Made by a program: the position numbers and the translations under genes. Under the pieces are notes generated by a model. The model saw nothing but the letters and a program-made list of their open reading frames with translations. It was not told the DNA's origin and did no database searches. Positions 2 to 43,037 of a DNA stretch of 51,253 nucleotides are shown here, in pieces. Numbering within the stretch: position 1 is the first letter of the stretch; each line of letters begins with the position of its first letter. Source of the DNA: an uncultured Pedosphaera sp. (GTDB taxonomy: Bacteria > Verrucomicrobiota > Verrucomicrobiia > Limisphaerales > UBA1100); assembly GCA_964533265.1 (NCBI GenBank), contig CAZHJW010000001.1, forward strand, positions 1 to 51,253. The letters are read 5' to 3'.

Positions 2-1036
2 CCCATATAAAAATTTACGGGCGTTAATGGCTTTTTCATCCAGTAGATCCAGCCCGTGCATATCCTTAGTTGGCTTGAAGCCCACTGCTTTGAGAGCCGT
101 CGGAACCATGTCGATACTGGAAACAGGCGTGGTGGACATGGCCGGTTTCACCTTGCCCGGCCAGCGCACCATGATGGGTGTACGCGTACCCCCGTCATAT
201 TGGCTGCGTTTGCTCTTCATGTCATAACCACGGGCCTTGGGATTCTGAATCCAGCCGTTATCGGTGACGTAGATAATGATCGTATCCTTAGCCATGCCCT
301 TCTTGTCAATGTGTCCGACCAGTTCTCCCACCGTTTCATCAAACCATTCGACCATTGCGTAGTAACGTGCCACATGAGGAGAATCTACTTTGGCGGCGTA
401 TTTATCAAAGAGTCGCTTAGGCGGATTGTGTGGTGTGTGTGGAAGAAAAGGCGCGTACCAAATGAAGAAAGGCTTCTCACCTGCTTCCTCAATGAAATCA
501 TAAATTGGCTTTAGTCCTTCCCGGCCGATCTTAAGACCTTCATCACCGTGACGACCTCGCCTTTTGGGGTCCCCATGAGTCATGCCGTGTGTGAAGCCGC
601 CCCTGCTGTAATGGCCCTGCCACCATTTGCCACTTTGATGACTCACGTAACCTTTCTCTTTAAGTATTCTCGGAAGCGACGGCCCTTTGTCGATTAGTGC
701 CACCTGCTCAGCAAAACGTTTGGCGTATTCCGGCGATCGTTTGCCTTGCGTCGGAATGGGCGGCTCGTTGCCTGTGATTTTGTTTTGATGTGGGTATAGA
801 CCGGTAATCATTGTTGCCAGAGATGGACAACATAAGCTACTGGGCACATAGCCATGTGTGTAGGTCAGGCTCTCTTTGGCAAGTTTATCGATATGGGGTG
901 TCTCAATAACCTTATGGCCCATAAAACTGTAATCAGTCCAGGTGTGGTCATCAGAAATGATGTAGATAATATTGGGCGACTTGGCGAAAGCCAGAATCGG
1001 GAGAAGCGTGGCAAGTAATAAAAATACACGGTGCAT
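2..1036 (-). CDS. Secreted sulfatase (formylglycine-dependent family), 3' end runs off the window
   Basis: Not in the ORF track. Manual translation from the ATG at 1036: MHRVFLLLATLLPILAFAKSPNIIYIISDDHTWTDYSFMGHKVIETPHIDKLAKESLTYTHGYVPSSLCCPSLATMITGLYPHQ... Signal peptide plus PNIIxIxxDD, TPxID, CxPS and TG motifs typical of sulfatases. Confidence 0.9.
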   Translation of the reverse strand, partial: MHRVFLLLATLLPILAFAKSPNIIYIISDDHTWTDYSFMGHKVIETPHIDKLAKESLTYTHGYVPSSLCCPSLATMITGLYPHQNKITGNEPPIPTQGKRSPEYAKRFAEQVALIDKGPSLPRILKEKGYVSHQSGKWWQGHYSRGGFTHGMTHGDPKRRGRHGDEGLKIGREGLKPIYDFIEEAGEKPFFIWYAPFLPHTPHNPPKRLFDKYAAKVDSPHVARYYAMVEWFDETVGELVGHIDKKGMAKDTIIIYVTDNGWIQNPKARGYDMKSKRSQYDGGTRTPIMVRWPGKVKPAMSTTPVSSIDMVPTALKAVGFKPTKDMHGLDLLDEKAINARKFLYG

Positions 1037-1082
1037 GGGGCGAATTTGGGGCAACTTCTGATCCTCTGCAAGCAAAGTCGGC

Positions 1083-1111
1083 TTGAGGAAAGATTGCCTG
1101 TAGGGTATATT
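1083..1111 (+). promoter_or_regulatory. Sigma70-like promoter of the 6S-like RNA (-35 TTGAGG, 17 bp, -10 TATATT)
   Basis: TTGAGG at 1083-1088 and TATATT at 1106-1111; the predicted +1 (~1118) coincides with the first base of the long hairpin. Confidence 0.65.
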
Positions 1112-1117
1112 GTTTGT

Positions 1118-1291
1118 ACCCGGCCGGGCCGCGCAAGGATACACGCCCTGGAAGGTAATAAATATAAATGGGGCCTTGCCTTCGATGCTGGCCGTCAGGC
1201 CTTGACTGGAAGTCGTAAGGCGTTGATTGGGCCCCACCTTGGAATCATCGTTCCTTGGGCCTTGTAAGCGCGGTTTGGTTTGGGTTTTTTT
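1118..1291 (+). ncRNA. ssrS: 6S RNA (ssrS)-like rod-shaped RNA
   Basis: 5' ACCCGGCCGGGCCGCGC pairs with 3' GCGCGGTTTGGTTTGGGT using many G-U pairs (fixes the + strand). Inner stems CAAGG/CCTTG, GCCC/GGGC, TGGGGCC/GGCCCCA and GCCTT/AAGGC flank an A-rich central bubble (TAATAAATATAAA). A U-run ends it; ~175 nt; lies upstream of rarA and ygfA, known 6S neighbours. Confidence 0.8.
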
Positions 1292-1328
1292 GTGCCCTTC
1301 TCCTGTTCTAACCGGTAAACTAAAACAA

Positions 1329-2705
1329 GTGGCAGAACGCGATCTATTCAGCGGTGAATCGGGGTCTCAAGCCGAAACTCCAAAGGCGGATCGTGCTGCA
1401 GGCCAGCGACAGGCGCCGTTGGCCGCTCGAATGCGCCCGCAAACTCTCGATGAGTATGCCGGTCAGCAGCATATTCTCAAATCGGGCATGCTGCTGCGGC
1501 GGGCAATAGAGGCTGACCGGATTCAGTCCTTAATCTTTTATGGTCCGCCCGGAACCGGGAAAACTACATTGGCCCAAATCATTGCCAATCGGACCGAGAG
1601 TAAGTTCGAACGCTTAAGTGGAGTGGAAAGTAACGTGGCGGAGATGCGGCGGGTATTAAGTGGGGCCGCAAACAGGCTTGAGAATACCGGGCGGCCCACC
1701 CTACTCTTTATAGATGAGATTCACCGTTTCAATAAATCTCAACAGGATGTGTTATTGCCCGATGTGGAAGGTGGCACCATTCGGCTTGTAGGGGCCACCA
1801 CTCATAACCCCTTCTTTTTTGTTAACTCACCATTAGTGTCACGCTCGCAAATATTCGAACTACAACCTCTCGGTGAGGAGGATATTCATAGTCTTCTGGA
1901 ACGGGCATTGGTGGACAGCGAACGCGGCTTGGGGCACATAAAAATGGAGGTCAAGCCGGAGGCTTTGGAACATTTGGCGAGGATTTCTGATGGAGATGCT
2001 CGAAAGGCATTAAATTCACTGGAGATCGCCGCTCTTACCACTGTTCCTGATGGGGAAGGCATAATCAGAGTGTCGATGGAAGTGGCAGAGGAATGCATCC
2101 AGAAAAAGGCGATTGTCTATGATGCTGACGGAGATCAACATTATGACACTATATCAGCTTTCATTAAATCGATTCGCGGCAGTGACCCCGACGCGGCTCT
2201 TTATTGGTTGGCCAAGATGATTCTTGCGGGTGAAGACCCTCGATTTATCACGCGCCGATTGATGATCAGTGCCTCCGAGGATATTGGATTGGCCGATCCA
2301 ATGGCCTTGGTGCTTTCCACCTCCGCGCATCAGGCAGCTGAATTTGTTGGCTGGCCTGAAGCACGTATACCCATTGCTGAAGCAACGGTATACTTGGCTA
2401 CTGCGCATAAGAGTAATAGCGCCTATACTGCAATCAATTCGGCTTTGGAAGAGGTCAAGAATGGGCGGACTATCCCTGTGCCCAAGCATTTACGGGATGG
2501 CCACTATAGTGGCGCAGAAAGACTGGGTAATGCTGAAGGATATAAATATTCGCATGATTATGAGGGGCATTATGTTGCCCAGGATTACCTTGGGGTTGAT
2601 GCTCGTTTTTATGAACCCACCGAACAGGGCGTTGAAAAGAAAATAAAAGATCGGGTTTTGCATTGGCGATCGCTTCAGGAGAAGGCAAAAACCGATGGCG
2701 GTTAA
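1329..2705 (+). CDS. rarA: Replication-associated recombination protein A (RarA/MgsA AAA+ ATPase)
   Basis: PLAARMRP, Walker A GPPGTGKT, FIDEIHRFNKSQQD, GATTHNP, SAFIKSIRGSDPDA, SEDIGLADP. GTG at 1329 preferred because the TTG at 1227 lies inside the 6S-like RNA. Confidence 0.95.
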   Translation: MAERDLFSGESGSQAETPKADRAAGQRQAPLAARMRPQTLDEYAGQQHILKSGMLLRRAIEADRIQSLIFYGPPGTGKTTLAQIIANRTESKFERLSGVESNVAEMRRVLSGAANRLENTGRPTLLFIDEIHRFNKSQQDVLLPDVEGGTIRLVGATTHNPFFFVNSPLVSRSQIFELQPLGEEDIHSLLERALVDSERGLGHIKMEVKPEALEHLARISDGDARKALNSLEIAALTTVPDGEGIIRVSMEVAEECIQKKAIVYDADGDQHYDTISAFIKSIRGSDPDAALYWLAKMILAGEDPRFITRRLMISASEDIGLADPMALVLSTSAHQAAEFVGWPEARIPIAEATVYLATAHKSNSAYTAINSALEEVKNGRTIPVPKHLRDGHYSGAERLGNAEGYKYSHDYEGHYVAQDYLGVDARFYEPTEQGVEKKIKDRVLHWRSLQEKAKTDGG

Positions 2706-3243
2706 TGAAGATAAATTAAAAGTTCGTGCTGAAATAAGTGCGATTCGAATTAGACCAGAAGAACGCGAAGAAGCTTCTTCGGCGATATGTAACCGGATAA
2801 AGGCACTTGAGGTGTGGAGGGATGCCAAAACAGTTCTGCTGTATGCACCACTGCCAGATGAGCCTGATGTAGTGCGGCTCTTTGACTATTCTAAAAGCGT
2901 TTGCTTCCCCCGTTTCAAAGTGGATCGAGTCTATGAATCGGCAATTGCTGAAAACGTTGAAAGTCTTGTGGTTGGTAAATTTGGAATTCAGGAGCCTCCG
3001 CCAGAGGCCGTTCATGTAAATGCCTCAGGTATTAATATAACTTTGGTCCCAGGACTTGCATTTGACGAGTCTTGCAACCGGCTTGGGCGAGGCCGAGGCT
3101 TTTATGACCGATGGCTACCCCATATATCAGGAATTAAAATAGGAATCGGCTTCGATCATCAACTGGTAGACTCTGTGCCAACCGAAAATCATGACCATCA
3201 ATTGGACATGGTTGTGATGCCGTCCAGGGAAATTAGAAGGTAG
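2695..3243 (+). CDS. ygfA: 5-formyltetrahydrofolate cyclo-ligase
   Basis: VPGLAFD...RLGRGRGFYDR and P-E-HD..LD motifs. Confidence 0.93.
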   Translation: MAVNEDKLKVRAEISAIRIRPEEREEASSAICNRIKALEVWRDAKTVLLYAPLPDEPDVVRLFDYSKSVCFPRFKVDRVYESAIAENVESLVVGKFGIQEPPPEAVHVNASGINITLVPGLAFDESCNRLGRGRGFYDRWLPHISGIKIGIGFDHQLVDSVPTENHDHQLDMVVMPSREIRR

Positions 3244-3423
3244 TTATCTATTGCGGCGACGATCAGTGCCGCCTCCAAAAAACTGGAAGCCGCGCGGCTC
3301 ATTCCAAGGTCTTTCTGAAACATTATCGGTATCAGGCGTTTCGCAGGCGGTGGTTCCGGTCAGGATAAGGCCGGAACCAATGATAATTAATATAGTGATT
3401 GGGGTGAGTAGATTACGTTGCAT
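3244..3423 (-). CDS. Small putative lipoprotein
   Basis: Hydrophobic N-terminus followed by TTAC (lipobox-like), then a short tail NVSERPWNEPRG; last gene of the minus-strand run. ATG at 3423. Confidence 0.65.
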   Translation of the reverse strand: MQRNLLTPITILIIIGSGLILTGTTACETPDTDNVSERPWNEPRGFQFFGGGTDRRRNR

Positions 3424-3428
3424 CAGGT

Positions 3429-4070
3429 TCAAGGGGTTTGTCCTGTTCTAAGGATGGGTTTATTCAGCTTCCCGGGTTTAATCGGCTTGGGGGCAATAAA
3501 CCGCGGCGAAGCTATTTCAATGGGTCTTTTCCGTTGTAATTCGATTATTTGCTCAGGAGTAACCCCTGTAGCCAAAAAAGGTTTTAGAGCTTGGATGGCC
3601 TTATCCAGTTCAACAGATGTTTCGGTATGGGTCTTATTTGCGTCAATCAGTGCCTTCGATAATTTTGCGTTGGTAGCGTTAAAGTCCATGATTGTTGTCT
3701 GAAGTTTAATTGCTTTATCAGCAAGTCCTTGGGCTTCCACTAATTGTGACTGCAATGTTGCGTTATTTGCTTGTGCTAACTGAAGGTCCCCCGCCATTTG
3801 CCCCTGGTCACCTTGGGCTGAGGCCAAGCTTTGATTAGCGGCTGCCAAAGCGTTGGTTGCTTTAGCAAGTTGGCCCTTAAGTGAAAAATTTTCTTTCTCT
3901 TCGGCAACCTTTTGCTCTGTTAACTTAAGGCCCTTTTTTTTCTGATCTTCCGCCGCTTCATGCGCATTGCTAATCAGCTTCTCAGATTTTTTTTGCTCCA
4001 TTAAAAGGTATGCGCTTGTCCCTAATGAACCTAGTAATAACAGGGTTAGGGCAATGAGAGCGGCTTTCAC
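3429..4070 (-). CDS. Membrane-anchored coiled-coil protein
   Basis: N-terminal TM segment and heptad-rich body; GTG at 4070 directly follows the upstream stop (TTG at 4088 is the alternative). Confidence 0.75.
   Translation of the reverse strand: MKAALIALTLLLLGSLGTSAYLLMEQKKSEKLISNAHEAAEDQKKKGLKLTEQKVAEEKENFSLKGQLAKATNALAAANQSLASAQGDQGQMAGDLQLAQANNATLQSQLVEAQGLADKAIKLQTTIMDFNATNAKLSKALIDANKTHTETSVELDKAIQALKPFLATGVTPEQIIELQRKRPIEIASPRFIAPKPIKPGKLNKPILRTGQTP
3721..3860. repeat. Copy 1 of a 140-bp segment shared with 4481-4620
   Basis: Ungapped alignment, 118/140 identical by hand count. Confidence 0.9.
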
Positions 4071-4071
4071 C

Positions 4072-4842
4072 TTAGTTTGCCTTGGCAACTTTGTCGCCGG
4101 CTTTGAGCAGTTGGCGGGTAAACTCTTTTACTGCATCAGCAATTGAAACAGTTGGTTGAGTTTGTTTGATTTTAATTTTCCCAACTAGATTCCCGGCGCG
4201 AAGGACATTGAATTCATCACCGGCCTTGACGCCATGATCTGCGCCGCGATTAATGACGTAAAAATTGAATTTAGGATCGTAGCTGGCAATGGCTCCAATT
4301 TCTGCTCCGGGCTTGGCATTGGTTCTAGGGGTGCCGCCCTTGGGGGTTTCGTTTTTGGATTCTGTGGCAGCTTTATCGGCATCGATTTTTTCAAGTCGTT
4401 TTTTCATCTTCCGCAGATCAGCAGGGGTTCCTAAAGCCTCGTAGTCTGCAAAATCCTTTTTCATGTTTTTGGCTTCTTCTGCAAGTCCTTGGGCTGCCAC
4501 TAATTGTGATTGTAATGTTGCGTTATCTGCTTGTGCCAACTGAAGGTCCTGTGCCATTTGGCCTTGGCCGCCTTGTACTGAAGCCAAGGTTTGATTGGCG
4601 GCTGCCAATTGGTTAGTCGCTTTGTTGAGCTCCCCTTGGGCAATTTGGAGGTCGCTATTAAGCTTTTGGTTATCAGTTTGAAGCTTTCCAGTGCCGCCTT
4701 TGGCTTGCTGGGCATCTGCTACTGCGGCCGTTTTTTCTTCTTCCGCTTTTTTGAGGTCTCCCTTGACACCCATTCCAAAGACGATACCCGCTATTCCGGC
4801 CAAAATATTCAGGCCCAGCATTATTTTGGTTACTTTACCCAT
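4072..4842 (-). CDS. Membrane-anchored coiled-coil protein with a C-terminal small beta domain (FlgT-C-like)
   Basis: N-terminal TM, long coiled coil, C-terminal VINRGADHGVKAGDEFNVLR..VGKIKI pattern. Confidence 0.75.
   Translation of the reverse strand: MGKVTKIMLGLNILAGIAGIVFGMGVKGDLKKAEEEKTAAVADAQQAKGGTGKLQTDNQKLNSDLQIAQGELNKATNQLAAANQTLASVQGGQGQMAQDLQLAQADNATLQSQLVAAQGLAEEAKNMKKDFADYEALGTPADLRKMKKRLEKIDADKAATESKNETPKGGTPRTNAKPGAEIGAIASYDPKFNFYVINRGADHGVKAGDEFNVLRAGNLVGKIKIKQTQPTVSIADAVKEFTRQLLKAGDKVAKAN
4481..4620. repeat. Copy 2 of the 140-bp segment shared with 3721-3860
   Basis: Offset of 760 bp, same strand, encodes the same peptide frame (ATNxLAAANQxLASxQGxQGQMAxDLQLAQAxNATLQSQLVxAQGLA). 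Confidence 0.9.
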
Positions 4843-4942
4843 ATTAAATCGTTCCCCTTAAGGTCTAACCTAGTCGGTAAGGCCAATAATGTCAATTATT
4901 GGGAACGACTTATGGCTCGAAAAACAAGTGAAATCTGGAAGA

Positions 4943-6169
4943 TTACTTGTTTGGTATGGGTGGCGGATTCAGAAAAGGGATGGGGGGTTCGCCCGGATTA
5001 GGTGGCTTGATAGCACCTTCTTCTTTATCCTTAAGCAATTCTTCCCTCTTTTTGAGGATGGAATCCACTGTGTAACTACTAACCCGGTAGGCATGTTTGG
5101 TGTACCCGGATTCTTTTTCCAACTTTTCCTTAAGAGTTTCCTGTTTGGCGGCCCAATCGTCATCAAGTTGTTTTTTATCCTCAGGCTTTTCGTCTTTTGC
5201 CGGGATGCGCTCCTTGGGCAAGTTTGCAGAAACGTTCACTTGGATGATTCGGTCGCTTCCCGAGGGGATTTGGCCAACTTTCACCTCATAGGTAAGCCCA
5301 TCAAATGTCTTGATGCTGATTTGGGTTGCGTTCTTATCCAGCTGTGATTTTTCGATGTCAGTTGCCAGGTCGTTAAATGAAGGTGAGCTTAAAGGCGAGA
5401 AAGGTGCGCTAGCTGTATCAAGGCTTTTTCCTTCAGGAATCTTGCCTTCCAGTTTCCATTCGGCGACGTCGCTGGATTTGGTAATTTTCCAAGAATTAGT
5501 TGATTCTCCGCCGGGGTATTTCACTTCAATGCTGTTGGCTTTCTCAACCTTGATGAAATCCTTATTTAACCAGTCGCTGGGCGTGGTGTTGGCATTGCTG
5601 AAAGTTTGGTCAACTACGGTGATCTTGCTCCGGTCGCTGTCTATCATCACGAAACGTCGGTCAGGAAACCCGCCTCCTCCCATTGGGGAGTTTTGGTTAT
5701 CTGAGCCTGGTGCAGAAAGCTCCTTGCCTAGATGGAGTGTATGCAGGGCTTTGCCCTCCTTATCCTGAAGGGTGATTCGAGTGGCAGAATTTTCAGATGC
5801 TGCGCCCGGATCAATTAGGCCGATGCGGCCTAATTGATCGCTTGCGGCACTTAGCTCTCTGAGCACCTTCATGTCTTTAAATTCACTGACAAATTTTTCA
5901 ATTCGTTCCGCATCTGCCGGGTATGCTTCCCGGTTAACCACAACCCACCCTTCGTCGGCTCGATTTAAGGTAAGGGTGTCCTTGGCTTCGCTTTTGTTGG
6001 CCGTAATTACTATTGCGTTAATTTTGCTGAAAGGCAGCTCGGCCAAGGGTTCTTTTCCTATAACAATGGAAGCAGTGCTACTCTTTCCTGCGGTCATTAA
6101 ATAAATAACGCCAAGGATTGCCAATACAATTGCCGGTCCAACGATTTTTTTTGATCTATCAGGTTTCAT
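4943..6169 (-). CDS. DUF4340-like periplasmic protein accompanying the Gld-type ABC system
   Basis: N-terminal TM, W-V..YPAD..I motif, 4-bp overlap with the upstream GldF/G-like gene; the usual context for DUF4340. Confidence 0.75.
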   Translation of the reverse strand: MKPDRSKKIVGPAIVLAILGVIYLMTAGKSSTASIVIGKEPLAELPFSKINAIVITANKSEAKDTLTLNRADEGWVVVNREAYPADAERIEKFVSEFKDMKVLRELSAASDQLGRIGLIDPGAASENSATRITLQDKEGKALHTLHLGKELSAPGSDNQNSPMGGGGFPDRRFVMIDSDRSKITVVDQTFSNANTTPSDWLNKDFIKVEKANSIEVKYPGGESTNSWKITKSSDVAEWKLEGKIPEGKSLDTASAPFSPLSSPSFNDLATDIEKSQLDKNATQISIKTFDGLTYEVKVGQIPSGSDRIIQVNVSANLPKERIPAKDEKPEDKKQLDDDWAAKQETLKEKLEKESGYTKHAYRVSSYTVDSILKKREELLKDKEEGAIKPPNPGEPPIPFLNPPPIPNK

Positions 6170-38847: not shown

Positions 38848-39020
38848 AGTTTACGGTGTATGCGCGCGAGATACGAAAGGCGACCGCCTAAGTCGAATAC
38901 ATCGAACGGGGATTTCCTTGTGAAACGAATTCTCAAGGAGGGATGGAACCGGGCGTATTAAGGGCGAAGCCGACCGGGCTGGCAACACTTTTCTTTACTA
39001 TTTTATGGCACTCCGACAGC

Positions 39021-40028
39021 CTACTCTTCCGGATCCCGTACCTGTAATTCTGAAACCTTATTCCGAGACTCTTCTGCAAGAGGCGTGCTTAGATAACGTT
39101 CTCCTGTCGAGCAGGCGACAGTCACAATCATCTTGCCGGTGTTTTCCGGCCTTTTGGCAACCTGTATTGCCGCCCAAACGTTTGCTCCCGTAGAGATGCC
39201 GCCCAATATCCCCTCTCTAGAAGCAAGTTCTCGAGTCATAGCAAAAGCATTATCATTACTTACCTTGATGCACTCTGCTATCTGCTTAGAACCGTCTTCC
39301 CCGTTTAAGTGAAGGTTTTCCGGCACAAATCCTGCGCCAGTTCCCTGAATTTTATGAGGGCCAGGGGTTAACTCTTCACCAGTCAAGGTTTGTGAGATTA
39401 CCGGGGAATCTTCTGGCTCAACTGCAATGGCCTGAAAGTCTGGCTTCTGTGGTTTAATAACCTCAACGCACCCGGTAATAGTCCCTCCGGTTCCAACACC
39501 TGAAACAACGATATCGACTTCTCCATCGGTATCTTCCCAAATTTCTACGGCTGTGGTCTCTCGATGGATGGCCGGGTTAGCGGGGTTTTCAAATTGTTGG
39601 GGAATCCATGAATTCTTAGTTTCGGCCGCGAGTTTCTCAGCCATGGCAATGGCTCCTTTCATTCCTTTCGCTGCCGGGGTAAGGACTAGGTCTGCTCCAA
39701 GCATTGAAAGAAGAGTGCGGCGTTCTAGTGACATGCTTTCTGGCATGGTAAGAATGACCTTGTACCCCTTGGATGCTGCCACAAAAGCCAGGGCAATACC
39801 TGTGTTACCGCTGGTTGGTTCAATAATGACAGTATCCTTGGTTAGTGAACCGTCCTTTTCGGCTGCCTCGATCATGGCCATTCCTATCCGGTCTTTTACG
39901 CTCGAGAGAGGATTAAAGAATTCGCATTTCAGCAGCACAGTGGCGGTAGCACCTTCAGTAACCTTGTTGAGTTTGACGAGCGGTGTGTCGCCCACTGTTT
40001 CTACGATGTTGTTGTAAATTTTGCCCAT
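39021..40028 (-). CDS. cysK: Cysteine synthase A
   Basis: [13 protein letters not shown] (PLP Lys), [37 protein letters not shown]; ATG at 40028. Confidence 0.95.
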
Positions 40029-40120
40029 ATTTCGAGAGAGGGGTACTCGCGGAATGAACACGCTTAAAGCTTTGCGGGCAAGTATTTTCCTGCGGATTAG
40101 TCGGGAATTACGTTAGTCAA

Positions 40121-40157
40121 AACAAAAAGTCCCTTCCGAATCTAGTCCGGAAGGGAC
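40121..40157 (-). terminator. Intrinsic terminator of the large ncRNA candidate
   Basis: GTCCCTTCCG/CGGAAGGGAC 10-bp stem, extended by G-U and A-U pairs on the minus strand and followed by TTTTTGTT. Confidence 0.85.
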
Positions 40158-41168
40158 AAATTGGGGGGTGGGCGTTCGCCACGCGCTCTTTCCCGTTGCA
40201 ACCATTTGGCACCCACAGTGTGGGTCGGTTGCTCCCCGACGCTATTCTCCGTGACTTTCGGAGTTGCCGGCCTCATAGCAGGGCCGTCCAAGGCCTTGCA
40301 GCACATGGATTATTGGGTGAGGTTTATTTGCCCGCTCAGCCAGTGGTTGCGGCCACTGACATGCGAACCAGACTGGACGCGCAAGTAATCCGTTCGCATC
40401 CTAGCCCTTTGGAAGCAGGTCAGCCATCGCTTGTGACGATGCGTTCGCCTGCCCCACGGGTCTCGCCTCTTAACCCTCAGATTGCCATTCGTTTACTTTG
40501 CAGCGCTGCAGTTTTTGCCGCATCGCCACGGTTTCGGATAGTTTTCACGACCGTCGTCTTGGGCGCGTGGCTATCCCGACGGTAACCCCGGCTTTTGTTC
40601 TCCTTTCAGAGGATTTCGTTCGGCTGGCCGTTTCCGGCCAATTTGCGGTTCCCGCCGTGCTGATGTCTCAGTAAGCAATCAATACCTTTTAGGCAACTGT
40701 GTTCCACTTGAGCTCAAAGAGGGCTCAAGCTTCTGACTCAGACCTACATCCCGAAGGATTTCGGTCCGGGCAAGTCTGTACGCGCAACTCATTGTGCCGC
40801 CTTCCCGGAGGAACGCAGCCTCGCTACACATTCAAACAAACCAAGCTCGGGGTTACTTCTAATGGAATTGATCTTTGTTCCACATCCCCTCGCTCCTTAA
40901 GTACCATTTCGCATTCGGTGACGTGCGAACATCACCGGGCACTTAAGTGAACTTTGCCTTCGCTCCATTTGGTTAATTCCAATTAATCATTACACCCTTC
41001 GTCCGCCAAAGACGGATTCCAGTTGTATTATTCAACCAGACCAAACGGTTTGATAGGGGGCAAGCGTATCAGCCCCGCCTGCCCTTTTGCCCGGTTATCC
41101 CGGGTTTTATCTTGAGAAGCATCCAGCCGTACAAGCCGGCCCTTCAGCTTCTGTTCTTTCAAGGAACT
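40121..41168 (-). ncRNA. Candidate large (~1.05 kb) highly structured non-coding RNA; family unassigned (compare MISL, GOLLD, ROOL)
   Basis: The only ~1.3 kb gap without a credible gene; about 20 closely packed inverted repeats; cUUCGg and GAAA tetraloops on the minus strand; long-range helix 40582-40590/40848-40856; bounded by a promoter-like element and a terminator. Confidence 0.75.
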
Positions 41169-41174
41169 AGAAAC

Positions 41175-41202
41175 AACCTACCACTGTATTGGAGTTCGTC
41201 TA
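41175..41202 (-). promoter_or_regulatory. Putative promoter of the large ncRNA (-35 TAGACG, 16 bp, extended -10 TGgTAGGTT)
   Basis: Minus strand TAGACG (41202-41197) and TAGGTT (41180-41175) preceded by TGn; +1 at ~41168, where the hairpin series starts. Confidence 0.5.
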
Positions 41203-41428
41203 CCGATTTTTGCTACCACCTTTTTCACAAACATTCTATCCTTTGGCATGAATTACTTGTTGAGTGGCGCTTATTTAATTGAAAGATTTATCTCTATTGT
41301 GAAGTTCTTCACAATCCCTCTTGTGGCGACTCTTGCCTATGTGAATAAATTCAAATAATTGAACCGCCCATACATGGTAATGATTGTATCTTTACATGGG
41401 ATTTTGGAAACATTTATATCTCCGCAAA

Positions 41429-41935
41429 ATGCACTCATGCCTTAAGCTATTGGCCGCGGTTTTCCTGTTTGCCGGATGCAACTATCCCGTTGAAACCAAG
41501 CGGAATAAGGCTCAGTTTGCATTTTATATTGAAGAATTTCCTCAGCAAGGGGCAAAAACTATGCTTTTAAAGGTATATCAAGCCAGCCCTAAAATGGTAC
41601 ACGTTGCTCCTAAGCCGGTCCTGGTTGGAGGGCCTGGCATGCTTAAAGGGACACGTGTTATCAATACACAGGATGGGCTTCATGCAATTCAGCTTAATTT
41701 CACCACGCGCGGGCAGGCTTTAATGGAGTATTTAACCACTAATTTCAGAGATCGAAGGCTTTACGTGGTTGTTGCTCAAAGTGATCAATCCAAAACCAAT
41801 GGCGTCAATTCGCGATGCATTGGAGCGTCATATATTCGGCAAACATTGAGGGCTTCATCCATGGCCTTTACTCCTGACGCTTCCCGTGAAGAATCTGAAA
41901 GCATTGTTGATCTTGTAAACAAAACACTCGAATAA
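41429..41935 (+). CDS. Lipoprotein with a SecD/SecDF P1-head-like segment
   Basis: Lipobox FAGC after the ATG at 41429; AIQLNFTTRGQALMEYLTTNFRDRRLYVVV resembles the P1 head motif (cf. this window's SecDF: EIHFTLDALGANQFAKVT...RLLCIVLDG). Confidence 0.6.
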   Translation: MHSCLKLLAAVFLFAGCNYPVETKRNKAQFAFYIEEFPQQGAKTMLLKVYQASPKMVHVAPKPVLVGGPGMLKGTRVINTQDGLHAIQLNFTTRGQALMEYLTTNFRDRRLYVVVAQSDQSKTNGVNSRCIGASYIRQTLRASSMAFTPDASREESESIVDLVNKTLE

Positions 41936-41993
41936 CTAACAGTAACTCGATTATTAGATATAAGAATGATCAGCAGAGAATTATTAATTTTAA

Positions 41994-43037
41994 ATGCGTT
42001 TATTAATTAGTATCATCCTACTGCTATCTGCTTCGTGTAAGCCCTACGAACAAAAAGGAGATCGGGAATTACTTGCTACCGCAGAGGCACGCGTCCACTT
42101 TGCTTTTCCTACTGCAAACGTCGAATTATTGAAGGCTGGGGGGGAAACGAATTTCTTCGCTCGGACTAACCTGGAAAGACCGTGGCAAAGTGGTGCATTT
42201 GGATGCGTGAGGAACAGCGGCACGCGACTTCATGAAGGAATCGACATTCTAAGCCAAGTTCGGGACACCAAGAATGAGCCTGTTGACAAGGTAAAAGCCT
42301 CTCGGAAAGGAAAGGTCGTGCATTTAAACAGAAACATCGCTGCCTCTAACTACGGGAAATATGCTGTCCTAATACATAATGTGGATGGTCTGCCGGTATA
42401 CACTCTCTATGCCCATTTAAGGAACATCGAAGGAGATTTGGTTGTGGGGTGTTCGGTTGAAGAAGGCGAGATCATTGGTGTTTTAGGACGTACTGCTAAT
42501 ACACGGGATGAAATAGCTCAATGGCGAGCTCATCTTCATTTTGAGGTTGGGGTTCAGGTAAACACTAAATTTGATCGCTGGTTTGGCACTTGGTATAAGG
42601 GCGGCAACAATCATCACGGTAACTGGAGTGGCCTCAATTTATTGGGGCTGGACGCGGCTCAGATACTTAAATTGAGTAAATTAGGGGAATTCAGTTTCAA
42701 AGAATATTTAATGTCTTTGCCAATTCTTTGCAGAGTGACTGTATTTCAGAAAAATGTGGATTGGATAGACCGGTATCCTGAGTTAATTGATAATTCCAAC
42801 AACGACGGAGAAGCGCCAACCGCATGGGATCTAGATCTCAATTGGAATGGAATCCCTATCCGGATTACTCCTCGAAAAGATGAAGTGATAAGTGGTGGTG
42901 CAAAATACCAAATAATTAATGTTTATGAAGATGTTCGAGCCAAGCACCCTTGTAATGGTTTATTGTTTCGAAAAGGCCAAAAATGGATCTTTAGTAGTAA
43001 AGGAAAGAGGTTGATGGATCTATTGCTTTTCCGTTGA
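41994..43037 (+). CDS. M23-family metallopeptidase lipoprotein
   Basis: Lipobox LSASC; HEGID (HxxxD), YG.Y, YTLYAHL, HLHFE. Confidence 0.9.
   Translation: MRLLISIILLLSASCKPYEQKGDRELLATAEARVHFAFPTANVELLKAGGETNFFARTNLERPWQSGAFGCVRNSGTRLHEGIDILSQVRDTKNEPVDKVKASRKGKVVHLNRNIAASNYGKYAVLIHNVDGLPVYTLYAHLRNIEGDLVVGCSVEEGEIIGVLGRTANTRDEIAQWRAHLHFEVGVQVNTKFDRWFGTWYKGGNNHHGNWSGLNLLGLDAAQILKLSKLGEFSFKEYLMSLPILCRVTVFQKNVDWIDRYPELIDNSNNDGEAPTAWDLDLNWNGIPIRITPRKDEVISGGAKYQIINVYEDVRAKHPCNGLLFRKGQKWIFSSKGKRLMDLLLFR

Follow-up and report, generated by a model that had tools for sequence, protein, structure and literature searches.

A full-length MISL RNA on the minus strand of the window

The window analysed here is a stretch of 51,253 nucleotides (nt) from an uncultured Pedosphaera sp. 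of the Verrucomicrobiota (assembly GCA_964533265.1, contig CAZHJW010000001.1, positions 1 to 51,253). On its minus strand, positions 40171-41112 hold the core of a large structured non-coding RNA, assigned here to the MISL RNA family (Rfam RF03079), between a cysteine synthase gene and a divergently oriented lipoprotein-like gene. When the whole window was run with Infernal against all 4227 Rfam families, MISL was the only match above its gathering score (514 bits vs 274.6, E 4e-155). The match spans positions 1-751 of the 751 of the model, is not truncated and occupies 942 nt of the window. In the cmscan alignments, the consensus helices of RF03079 are kept, pseudoknot strands included, with only scattered marks of non-canonical pairs, and the sequence agrees exactly with the consensus at GGCAnnnUUCAC, UAAGAGGCGAGACCCGU, CGGCCCUGCUAUGAGGCCG and GGGAAAGAGCGCGUGGCGAAC. 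An alignment of 28 homologues, drawn from at least 13 families, has 166 invariant columns and another 118 conserved at 90% or more. Between 39900 and 41500, the Infernal search against Rfam found nothing besides MISL on either strand at E <= 1, which rules out GOLLD, ROOL, OLE, HEARO, group I and II introns, RNase P RNA and transfer-messenger RNA (tmRNA). MISL is single-copy in the genome of the window (G000), a 2.6-Mb draft in 261 contigs that is 90% complete, as searched with Rfam. The score, the coverage of the full model, the consensus helices, the range within Verrucomicrobia and the status of stand-alone non-coding gene (Rfam type 'Gene; sRNA') all agree with membership of RF03079, and the element at 40171-41112 is almost certainly a MISL RNA, the large structured non-coding RNA of Verrucomicrobiota.

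A preliminary description of the gap 40121-41168, made from the sequence alone, had proposed either a long MISL-like RNA or an undescribed class. The first option stands with the full-length match and the second falls; the comparison to Rfam that it had called for confirms the RNA and takes away the novelty of the class. Its statement that MISL is an RNA of about 0.8 kb from Verrucomicrobia fits a model of 751 positions and named contigs that are nearly all from Verrucomicrobiota, and the adjective 'long' is apt for a copy of 942 nt vs about 752 nt in most members. The RNA class is therefore already catalogued, and the window copy is an expanded member of it from a marine verrucomicrobial lineage. 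MISL RNA reportedly comes from the screen of large intergenic regions by Weinberg et al. in 2017. The word 'MISL' occurs 0 times in the main text of this 2017 paper, PMC5737381, whose supplements may already report the genomic context, a 5' extension or longer variants. In the literature search, 'MISL RNA' was found only in the Ribonanza preprint, which uses a MISL window as a chemical-mapping example; 'MISL motif' and 'RF03079' were found in none, and 'MISL' was absent among the matches listed for the terms MISL, GOLLD and ROOL in combination.

Folding supports the same strand. The minus strand folds at -370 kcal/mol vs -319 +/- 5 in 20 dinucleotide shuffles (z = -9.95) and the plus strand reaches z = -4.57, so that both fold better than shuffled sequence, well beyond chance, and the minus strand is favoured. 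The preference of the preliminary description for the minus strand agrees with this score, with the Rfam match and with the comparison of promoters and terminators given below. The complementary segments it listed are at the positions it gave, as checked by eye for ACCCAC 40211-40216/GTGGGT 40220-40225, GTCGG 40224-40228/CCGAC 40236-40240, CTCCG 40247-40251/CGGAG 40259-40263 and GTAACCCCG 40582-40590/CGGGGTTAC 40848-40856. Seven of the ten stems it named match helices of the Rfam consensus or helices that covary in the expansions, namely ACCCAC/GTGGGT, CTCCG/CGGAG, CAGTGG/CCACTG, the GAAA-capped stem 40625-40640, CTTGAGC/GCTCAAG, the UUCG hairpin 40748-40759 and CCCGG/CCGGG. The three others were not borne out: the 3' strand of GTCGG/CCGAC belongs to a different consensus helix, both strands of ATGCGAAC/GTTCGCAT (40361-40399) are paired elsewhere in the consensus, and, in the 9-bp long-range helix 40582-40590/40848-40856, CCCC at 40848-40852 has a local partner, GGGG, in an Rfam stem that covaries. 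The 9-bp complementarity of this long-range helix is not kept by the homologues.

Transcription unit and presence in RNA libraries

A scan for a 21-base invariant pattern, with one genome per species, returned at least 119 contigs, all of which carry MISL (nhmmer E <= 1e-65). In these loci, conservation extends beyond the start of the Rfam model. On the minus strand of the window, this 5' extension (41113-41168) would begin with a terminal hairpin of 4 bp, GUUC(41167-41164)-CUUGAAA-GAAC(41156-41153), whose form in the family is GUUC-N7-GAAC, and continue with a helix AGAAGC(41152-41147)/GCUUCU(41120-41115) that has an inner stem CCGGC/GCUGG. A near-invariant motif, AGTTCNTTGAAAGAAC, is found about 45-50 nt ahead of the model start in 104 of the 107 loci having upstream sequence. 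The arms of the closing helix differ among genomes yet remain complementary: with 61 distinct 5' strands, 65 of the 84 unique arm pairs form at least 6 contiguous pairs, vs 29% when arms are taken from different sequences. This per-sequence test supersedes a test on fixed columns (71.6% paired vs 31-54% when shifted). RNAalifold, applied to a MAFFT alignment of the extension (50 of the 103 unique sequences), recovered only the first Rfam hairpin, because the arm of variable length was misaligned. The RNA thus seems to have some 55 nt of 5' domain lying outside the Rfam model.

Just upstream, family conservation points to a promoter of the sigma-70 type at 41175-41202 (minus strand), with a predicted -35 element TAGACG (41202-41197), a 16-nt spacer and a predicted -10 element TAGGTT (41180-41175); the consensus of the family ahead of the 5' motif is Ttg.c.-N16/17-tA...T. 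Transcription is predicted to start near A41168, at the A/G of the motif AGUUCNUUGAAAGAAC. A sigma-70 scanner found no site at the conserved promoter, and its sole minus-strand site (41410-41383) lies where RNA contigs are absent. The promoter that the preliminary description had seen on the minus strand is therefore backed by conservation across loci but not by the consensus scanner. At the other end, an intrinsic terminator (40119-40157, minus strand) is made of a hairpin at 40157-40129, with 12 pairs of which 7 are G-C, and of a U-tail at 40128-40119 (TTTTTGTTTT). The terminator scan by itself does not exceed the expectation from shuffles (2 found vs 2.2 expected). A hairpin of -10 kcal/mol or below with a run of four or more T after it is found no more than 100 nt from the 3' end of the model in 87 of 99 loci, usually 45-51 nt off, and this conserved placement bears out the U-tailed terminator proposed earlier. 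Taken together, these features argue for an independent minus-strand transcription unit of about 1.05 kb, running from about 41168 to the U-tail at 40128-40119. The limits 40121-41168 first proposed agree with the predicted transcript (about 41168 to 40119) within two bases at each end.

Fourteen DNA runs from marine or seawater samples match the region 39000-42000 at 60% or more of the sampled words, and six metatranscriptome runs do so at 25-28%, i.e., close to the share of MISL in this region. RNA contigs from four metatranscriptome runs, belonging to four studies, were aligned to it. Over MISL, they are confined to about 40152-41153, and one contig of 787 nt has 2 differences. Summed word depths of the MISL contigs range from 512 to 5401 in three of the runs and from 36,000 to 126,000 in the remaining one. 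In the flanks, only contigs of the cysteine synthase gene cysK were recovered, at a depth of 0.65-6.3 and in two of the four runs, and no RNA contig from the four runs lies above 41222. The contig-free segments 39000-39200 and 41222-42000 serve as a silent control, which is not a proof that the genes there are unexpressed; since the flanks are silent, DNA carry-over is not the explanation for the cover of MISL. Seawater RNA libraries thus contain MISL as a discrete RNA with deep cover, a statement that implies no ratio. The metatranscriptome cover that the preliminary description had proposed as a check is there, in contigs that hold no strand information. Contigs from two studies end at 41146, those of one study end at 41153 and those of one at 40152, in each case running into adapter-like letters, which we take to be Illumina adapter. 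Such ends suggest that the molecules themselves end at 41146 or 41153 and at 40152. In run X15, a contig of depth 427 joins 40371 to 40454 and skips 82 nt inside MISL, its shorter side being only 28 nt; the junction may stem from a variant, from a relative or from an artefact.

Lineage-specific expansions and distribution

MISL RNAs are rather uniform in length. Among 104 full-length loci, 90 are 725-774 nt long and only 12 reach 825 nt or more. The window copy, at 942 nt, is about 190 nt longer than usual, and in the alignment of 28 copies the surplus falls into three segments, all given here on the minus strand. Expansion segment 1 (ES1, 63 nt, 40979-41041) lies within the hairpin at model position ~68 and is absent in the members of about 752 nt. 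Expansion segment 2 (ES2, 20 nt, 40864-40883) lengthens, in the alignment, the hairpin loop at model position ~163. Expansion segment 3 (ES3, 104 nt, 40740-40843) follows model position ~183 and includes the AUCC-UUCG-GGAU hairpin at 40748-40759. The length of these segments is kept while their sequence varies. In genera g1 and g5, 13 of 14 members have an ES1 of 60-64 nt, and the 14th, cut by a contig end, shows 42 nt. ES3 measures 97-108 nt in the same two genera, 48 or 126 nt in g2 and g4, and 0 elsewhere. Growth is stepwise inside the family of the window, with 763 nt in one genus, about 845 nt in another and 893 or 996 nt in a third; MISL reaches about 940 nt in the genus of the window plus one other genus.

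These segments also bear signs of pairing. The alignment of ES1 has 9 pairs, forming a tip hairpin and a second small hairpin, with 91.5% of the cells paired vs 17-47% when the partner strand is slid; 8 of these pairs have double changes, and none of 500 shuffles attains the score. The alignment of ES2 and ES3, which also takes in the Rfam stem around ES2, has 30 pairs (91.6% paired vs 22-54% when slid), 18 of them with double changes. The GGGG/CCCC stem that encloses ES2 covaries across families. Both alignments were made with MAFFT from 13-14 related sequences, so that the inner architecture of ES1 and ES3 is only partly resolved. Compensatory changes, for which the preliminary description had proposed to look among homologues, were thus found in the hairpins of ES1 and of ES2 plus ES3. 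The three expansions would therefore be structured, peripheral arms peculiar to this marine lineage. Expansions of ribosomal RNA and RNase P RNA likewise sit in peripheral hairpins. The natural pair of about 752 and about 940 nt marks core vs peripheral parts of the RNA, which should aid the design of constructs for cryo-electron microscopy (cryo-EM).

MISL was found in 31 of 41 genomes from the genus, family and order of the window (G000 included), and in 29 of them over the cut-off. A wider sample of the phylum gave 9 of 151 genomes, again with G000 included, and the hits cluster by family: 6 of 8 genomes in family f21, and none in f20 (0/15), f22 (0/15) and f29 (0/24). For 80 of the at least 119 loci of the motif scan, the titles name, with few exceptions, Verrucomicrobiota, Limisphaerales, Verrucomicrobiales, Opitutaceae or Pedosphaera. 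A hidden, divergent MISL was sought at the syntenic site of seven MISL-negative genomes and rejected, with nothing found by nhmmer at E <= 10 or by Rfam at E <= 0.01. In these seven sites, open reading frames (ORFs) fill the space, and the lone hit, a sub-threshold rliD (36 vs 50 bits), is taken as chance. In two genomes the MISL match is split or partial, which may reflect either breaks in the assembly or genuine disruptions. In G009, the match is split over C207:3071-3430 (model 387-750) and C42:23671-24240 (model 8-381), and in G006 (C2:27491-27855) only the 3' half is matched (model 383-750).

Gene neighbourhood, possible roles and relation to known large RNAs

On the 3' side of MISL and on the same strand lie cysK (39021-40061, minus strand; TIGR01139, 431 bits vs a cut-off of 351) and then rho, the RNA being 110 nt upstream of cysK. 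On the 5' side, and divergent, are an ORF of 183 aa resembling a lipoprotein (41384-41935, plus strand), an M23 peptidase gene and an aminotransferase gene. The locus is thus chromosomal and among core genes, as the preliminary description had it, with cysK and rho on one side and the lipoprotein-like gene and M23 peptidase gene on the other. Over 120 loci (that of the window and 119 from the scan), counting only those whose flank is long enough, the lipoprotein-like ORF is a neighbour in 53 of 97, the M23 peptidase in 38 of 71, cysK (downstream and on the same strand) in 37 of 85 and a rho-like ORF in 24 of 57; in a divergent clade of 20 loci, the corresponding figures are 0/18, 0/11, 2/16 and 0/8. 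The lipoprotein-like ORF was considered as a dedicated partner of MISL and rejected, as it is present in 39 of the 41 relatives, MISL-negative ones included. The synteny of MISL is ordinary and decaying, with no fixed gene partner, which argues against cis-regulation and for an RNA acting in trans.

With cysK lying 110 nt downstream in the same orientation and rho next, the RNA could also be a long 5' leader that regulates cysK and rho in cis, all the more as 37 of 85 loci have cysK next to MISL on the downstream side. Against this, a strong terminator, conserved in 87 of 99 loci, stands between the RNA and cysK, the RNA contigs stop at about 40152 with none bridging to cysK, and cysK is not downstream in 48 of 85 loci, including 14 of 16 in the divergent clade. 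Such a leader is very improbable and close to refuted. A coding function for the region is harder still to believe. The preliminary description saw no credible ORF there, and the ORFs of the gap are indeed all short, the longest being one of 129 aa on the plus strand (40196-40585). A protein encoded by this ORF, or a small peptide, might be suspected since the frame lacks stops in 12 of 28 homologues, but it is closed in the 16 others, substitution rates at its codon positions 1, 2 and 3 are equal (0.152/0.147/0.155, hence no periodicity) and the 129-aa product has no Pfam match at E <= 0.1. The conserved ORF that the same description had named as an argument against an RNA thus leaves no coding signal, either in codon periodicity or in Pfam. 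Since this half of the RNA is its most conserved one and is heavily paired, an open frame is expected here by mere inheritance; the antisense frame illustrates how a long open frame can persist by descent within a conserved structured RNA. The least credible proposal is that MISL stands in for a missing universal RNA. It starts from G000, which has no match to RF00010 (RNase P RNA) and, for RF00023 (tmRNA), only tRNA-like matches of 17-29 bits. However, RNase P RNA is found in 35 of the 41 relatives (13 of 14 in the same genus) and tmRNA over the cut-off in 25 of 41, both RNAs occur in MISL-bearing genomes, G000 is an incomplete draft (90%, 261 contigs), and it does have signal recognition particle RNA as well as a 6S RNA match near the threshold. 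Because of this co-occurrence in relatives, MISL is rejected as a substitute for either RNA, and the two gaps in G000 are likely assembly gaps of the incomplete draft. As a separate observation, the sub-threshold 6S RNA match (RF00013) at 1118-1285 on the plus strand is full-length (42.5 bits vs 46.4, E 3e-7) and is probably the 6S RNA gene of the genome.

The surroundings of the promoter raise another possibility, namely that DnaA controls the transcription of MISL and that the RNA reports on, or acts in, replication or the cell cycle, or else that the locus is at or near an origin. The DnaA-box consensus is TTATNCACA. Just upstream of the -35 element, the consensus of the family, gGtgAA.AA..TGtgcatA.cAA, amounts to two DnaA-box-like 9-mers 11 bp apart. 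Of 92 anchored loci, 73 have, in the zone 35-85 nt ahead of the 5' motif, one or more 9-mers that match TGTGNATAA/TTATNCACA at 8 or more of 9 positions, vs an expectation of 0.011 per locus in those same loci, and 16 loci have a perfect box. The sites are phased relative to the 5' motif: 49 loci have one at -56 and 21 at -67, and inverted sites recur at -86 (16 loci) and -97 (14). In G041, a complete chromosome of 5.9 Mb from which 20 pieces of 20 kb were sampled, the densest clusters are those upstream of MISL (4 boxes) and dnaA (3), and each holds an 11-bp tandem pair (on the dnaA side, L171 5604 and 5615). The composite GTGAAYAANNTGTGNATA has, at one mismatch or less, 5 sites in G041, one of them at the MISL promoter and another 340 nt ahead of dnaA, vs 0 for a reversed control. 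The window itself has three such 9-mers upstream of the promoter (41221-41348): TTTTTCACA at 41221 (8/9), TTCTTCACA at 41305 (8/9) and TGTGAATAA at 41340 (9/9). The first, at 41221-41229, corresponds to the family box at offset -67. This is the densest 300-bp box cluster of the window (3, others at most 2), yet six places in the genome have 4.

Several data oppose a role of DnaA. The boxes in the lineage of the window are degenerate (8/9, 8/9 and one 9/9), and G000 shows no enrichment, with 72 perfect boxes vs ~83 expected and those six other places with 4 boxes per 300 bp. The distance from MISL to dnaA is 2.0 Mb in G041 and 0.57 Mb in G043. The composite is absent at one mismatch or less in 2 of 5 genomes, its remaining sites adjoin unrelated genes (a FabF-like gene and those of a phosphoesterase and PNPase), and the conservation of the motif among relatives is partly due to shared descent. 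A replication origin (oriC), which would bring with it DnaA-bound boxes, a switch of GC skew and an AT-rich unwinding element, was considered for the intergenic region between MISL and the lipoprotein-like gene and is not supported: neither the window nor the 150-kb contig has a GC-skew switch at 41 kb, the divergent gene orientation does not extend beyond three genes, and dnaA is far away in G041 and G043. In the 20 sampled pieces of G041, the sign of the skew alternates and is too noisy for placing an origin. An origin at the MISL locus is thus unsupported, and control by DnaA is a possibility on the doubtful side; the DnaA-box-like motifs would be a lead, weak in this window, albeit a testable one for regulation. 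If the promoter were read by DnaA, the level of MISL would follow the replication-initiation status. In another locus, L196 (G044:C18), three tandem DnaA-box-like 9-mers with 11-bp spacing (~2149-2178) lie directly upstream of TTGAAA and of a TAAAT-like element; they precede a FabF-like ketoacyl-synthase gene, and this promoter architecture is the same as that of MISL.

The best explanation of the whole remains a MISL RNA gene with its own transcription unit in Verrucomicrobiota, to which a probability of roughly 0.9 can be given, and the following model can be drawn from it. A sigma-70-type promoter of its own would drive minus-strand transcription of MISL from near 41168 to the U-tail 40128-40119. 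The product would be a stable, abundant RNA acting in trans. Its 166 invariant positions, many of them in junctions and loops, would build a compact tertiary core, which would act as a ribonucleoprotein scaffold, as an RNA-only assembly or as a ribozyme. The lineage-specific arms, sitting in peripheral hairpins, would leave this conserved core untouched. A mechanism of the scaffold type is tentative, although a base-pairing small RNA or a cis-regulator of a neighbouring gene is unlikely. The most complete version, in which an abundant MISL has a promoter read by DnaA through phased tandem boxes as upstream of dnaA, a ribonucleoprotein or RNA-only core, marine arms and a 5' domain, is improbable as a whole.

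Several observations weigh against the model of an abundant, self-standing MISL RNA gene. The RNA contigs cannot give the strand, the exact ends or the expression level; the RNA runs were chosen for containing the stretch, and relatives at least 90% alike add to the depth. The contigs also end 15-22 nt inside the predicted start, a shortfall that may reflect 5' processing or a stop of reverse transcription at the terminal hairpin. No protein partner, ligand or target of MISL was found. MISL was not found in 10 of the 41 relatives, five of which are at least 90% complete, and its presence in 8 of 150 other genomes of the phylum fits uneasily with a universal housekeeping role. From its absence in these 10 relatives, seven of which also lack it at the syntenic site, it follows that lineages can do without it, and MISL is thus dispensable or replaceable.

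MISL is among the largest bacterial RNAs without known function, and the window copy provides usable additions to the family: predicted transcript limits, an unmodelled 5' domain, presence in RNA libraries from four studies, short and long natural forms, and the promoter motif. Compared with typical MISL RNAs, it has the same full model, consensus helices, pseudoknot strands and junction sequences, and is likewise intergenic, single-copy and from Verrucomicrobiota; it differs by its length (942 nt vs about 752 nt) and its three expansion segments. Compared with the Rfam model, its transcript appears to add about 55 nt at the 5' end and a terminator hairpin at the 3' end. Among other large RNAs, ROOL, GOLLD and OLE form RNA-only multimers according to a cryo-EM study (10.1101/2024.12.08.627333). 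Like them, MISL is large and intricately folded, has many conserved unpaired nucleotides and is of unknown function. Unlike them, it lies not beside tRNAs or prophage genes but among core genes with partly conserved synteny; it has no Rfam match to these families (E <= 1). The raiA motif RNA is described as abundant and of unknown function in PMC12968392. MISL resembles it as a stand-alone structured RNA that looks like a housekeeping one and is apparently abundant, whereas its fold, size (about 750-940 nt) and phylum are unrelated.

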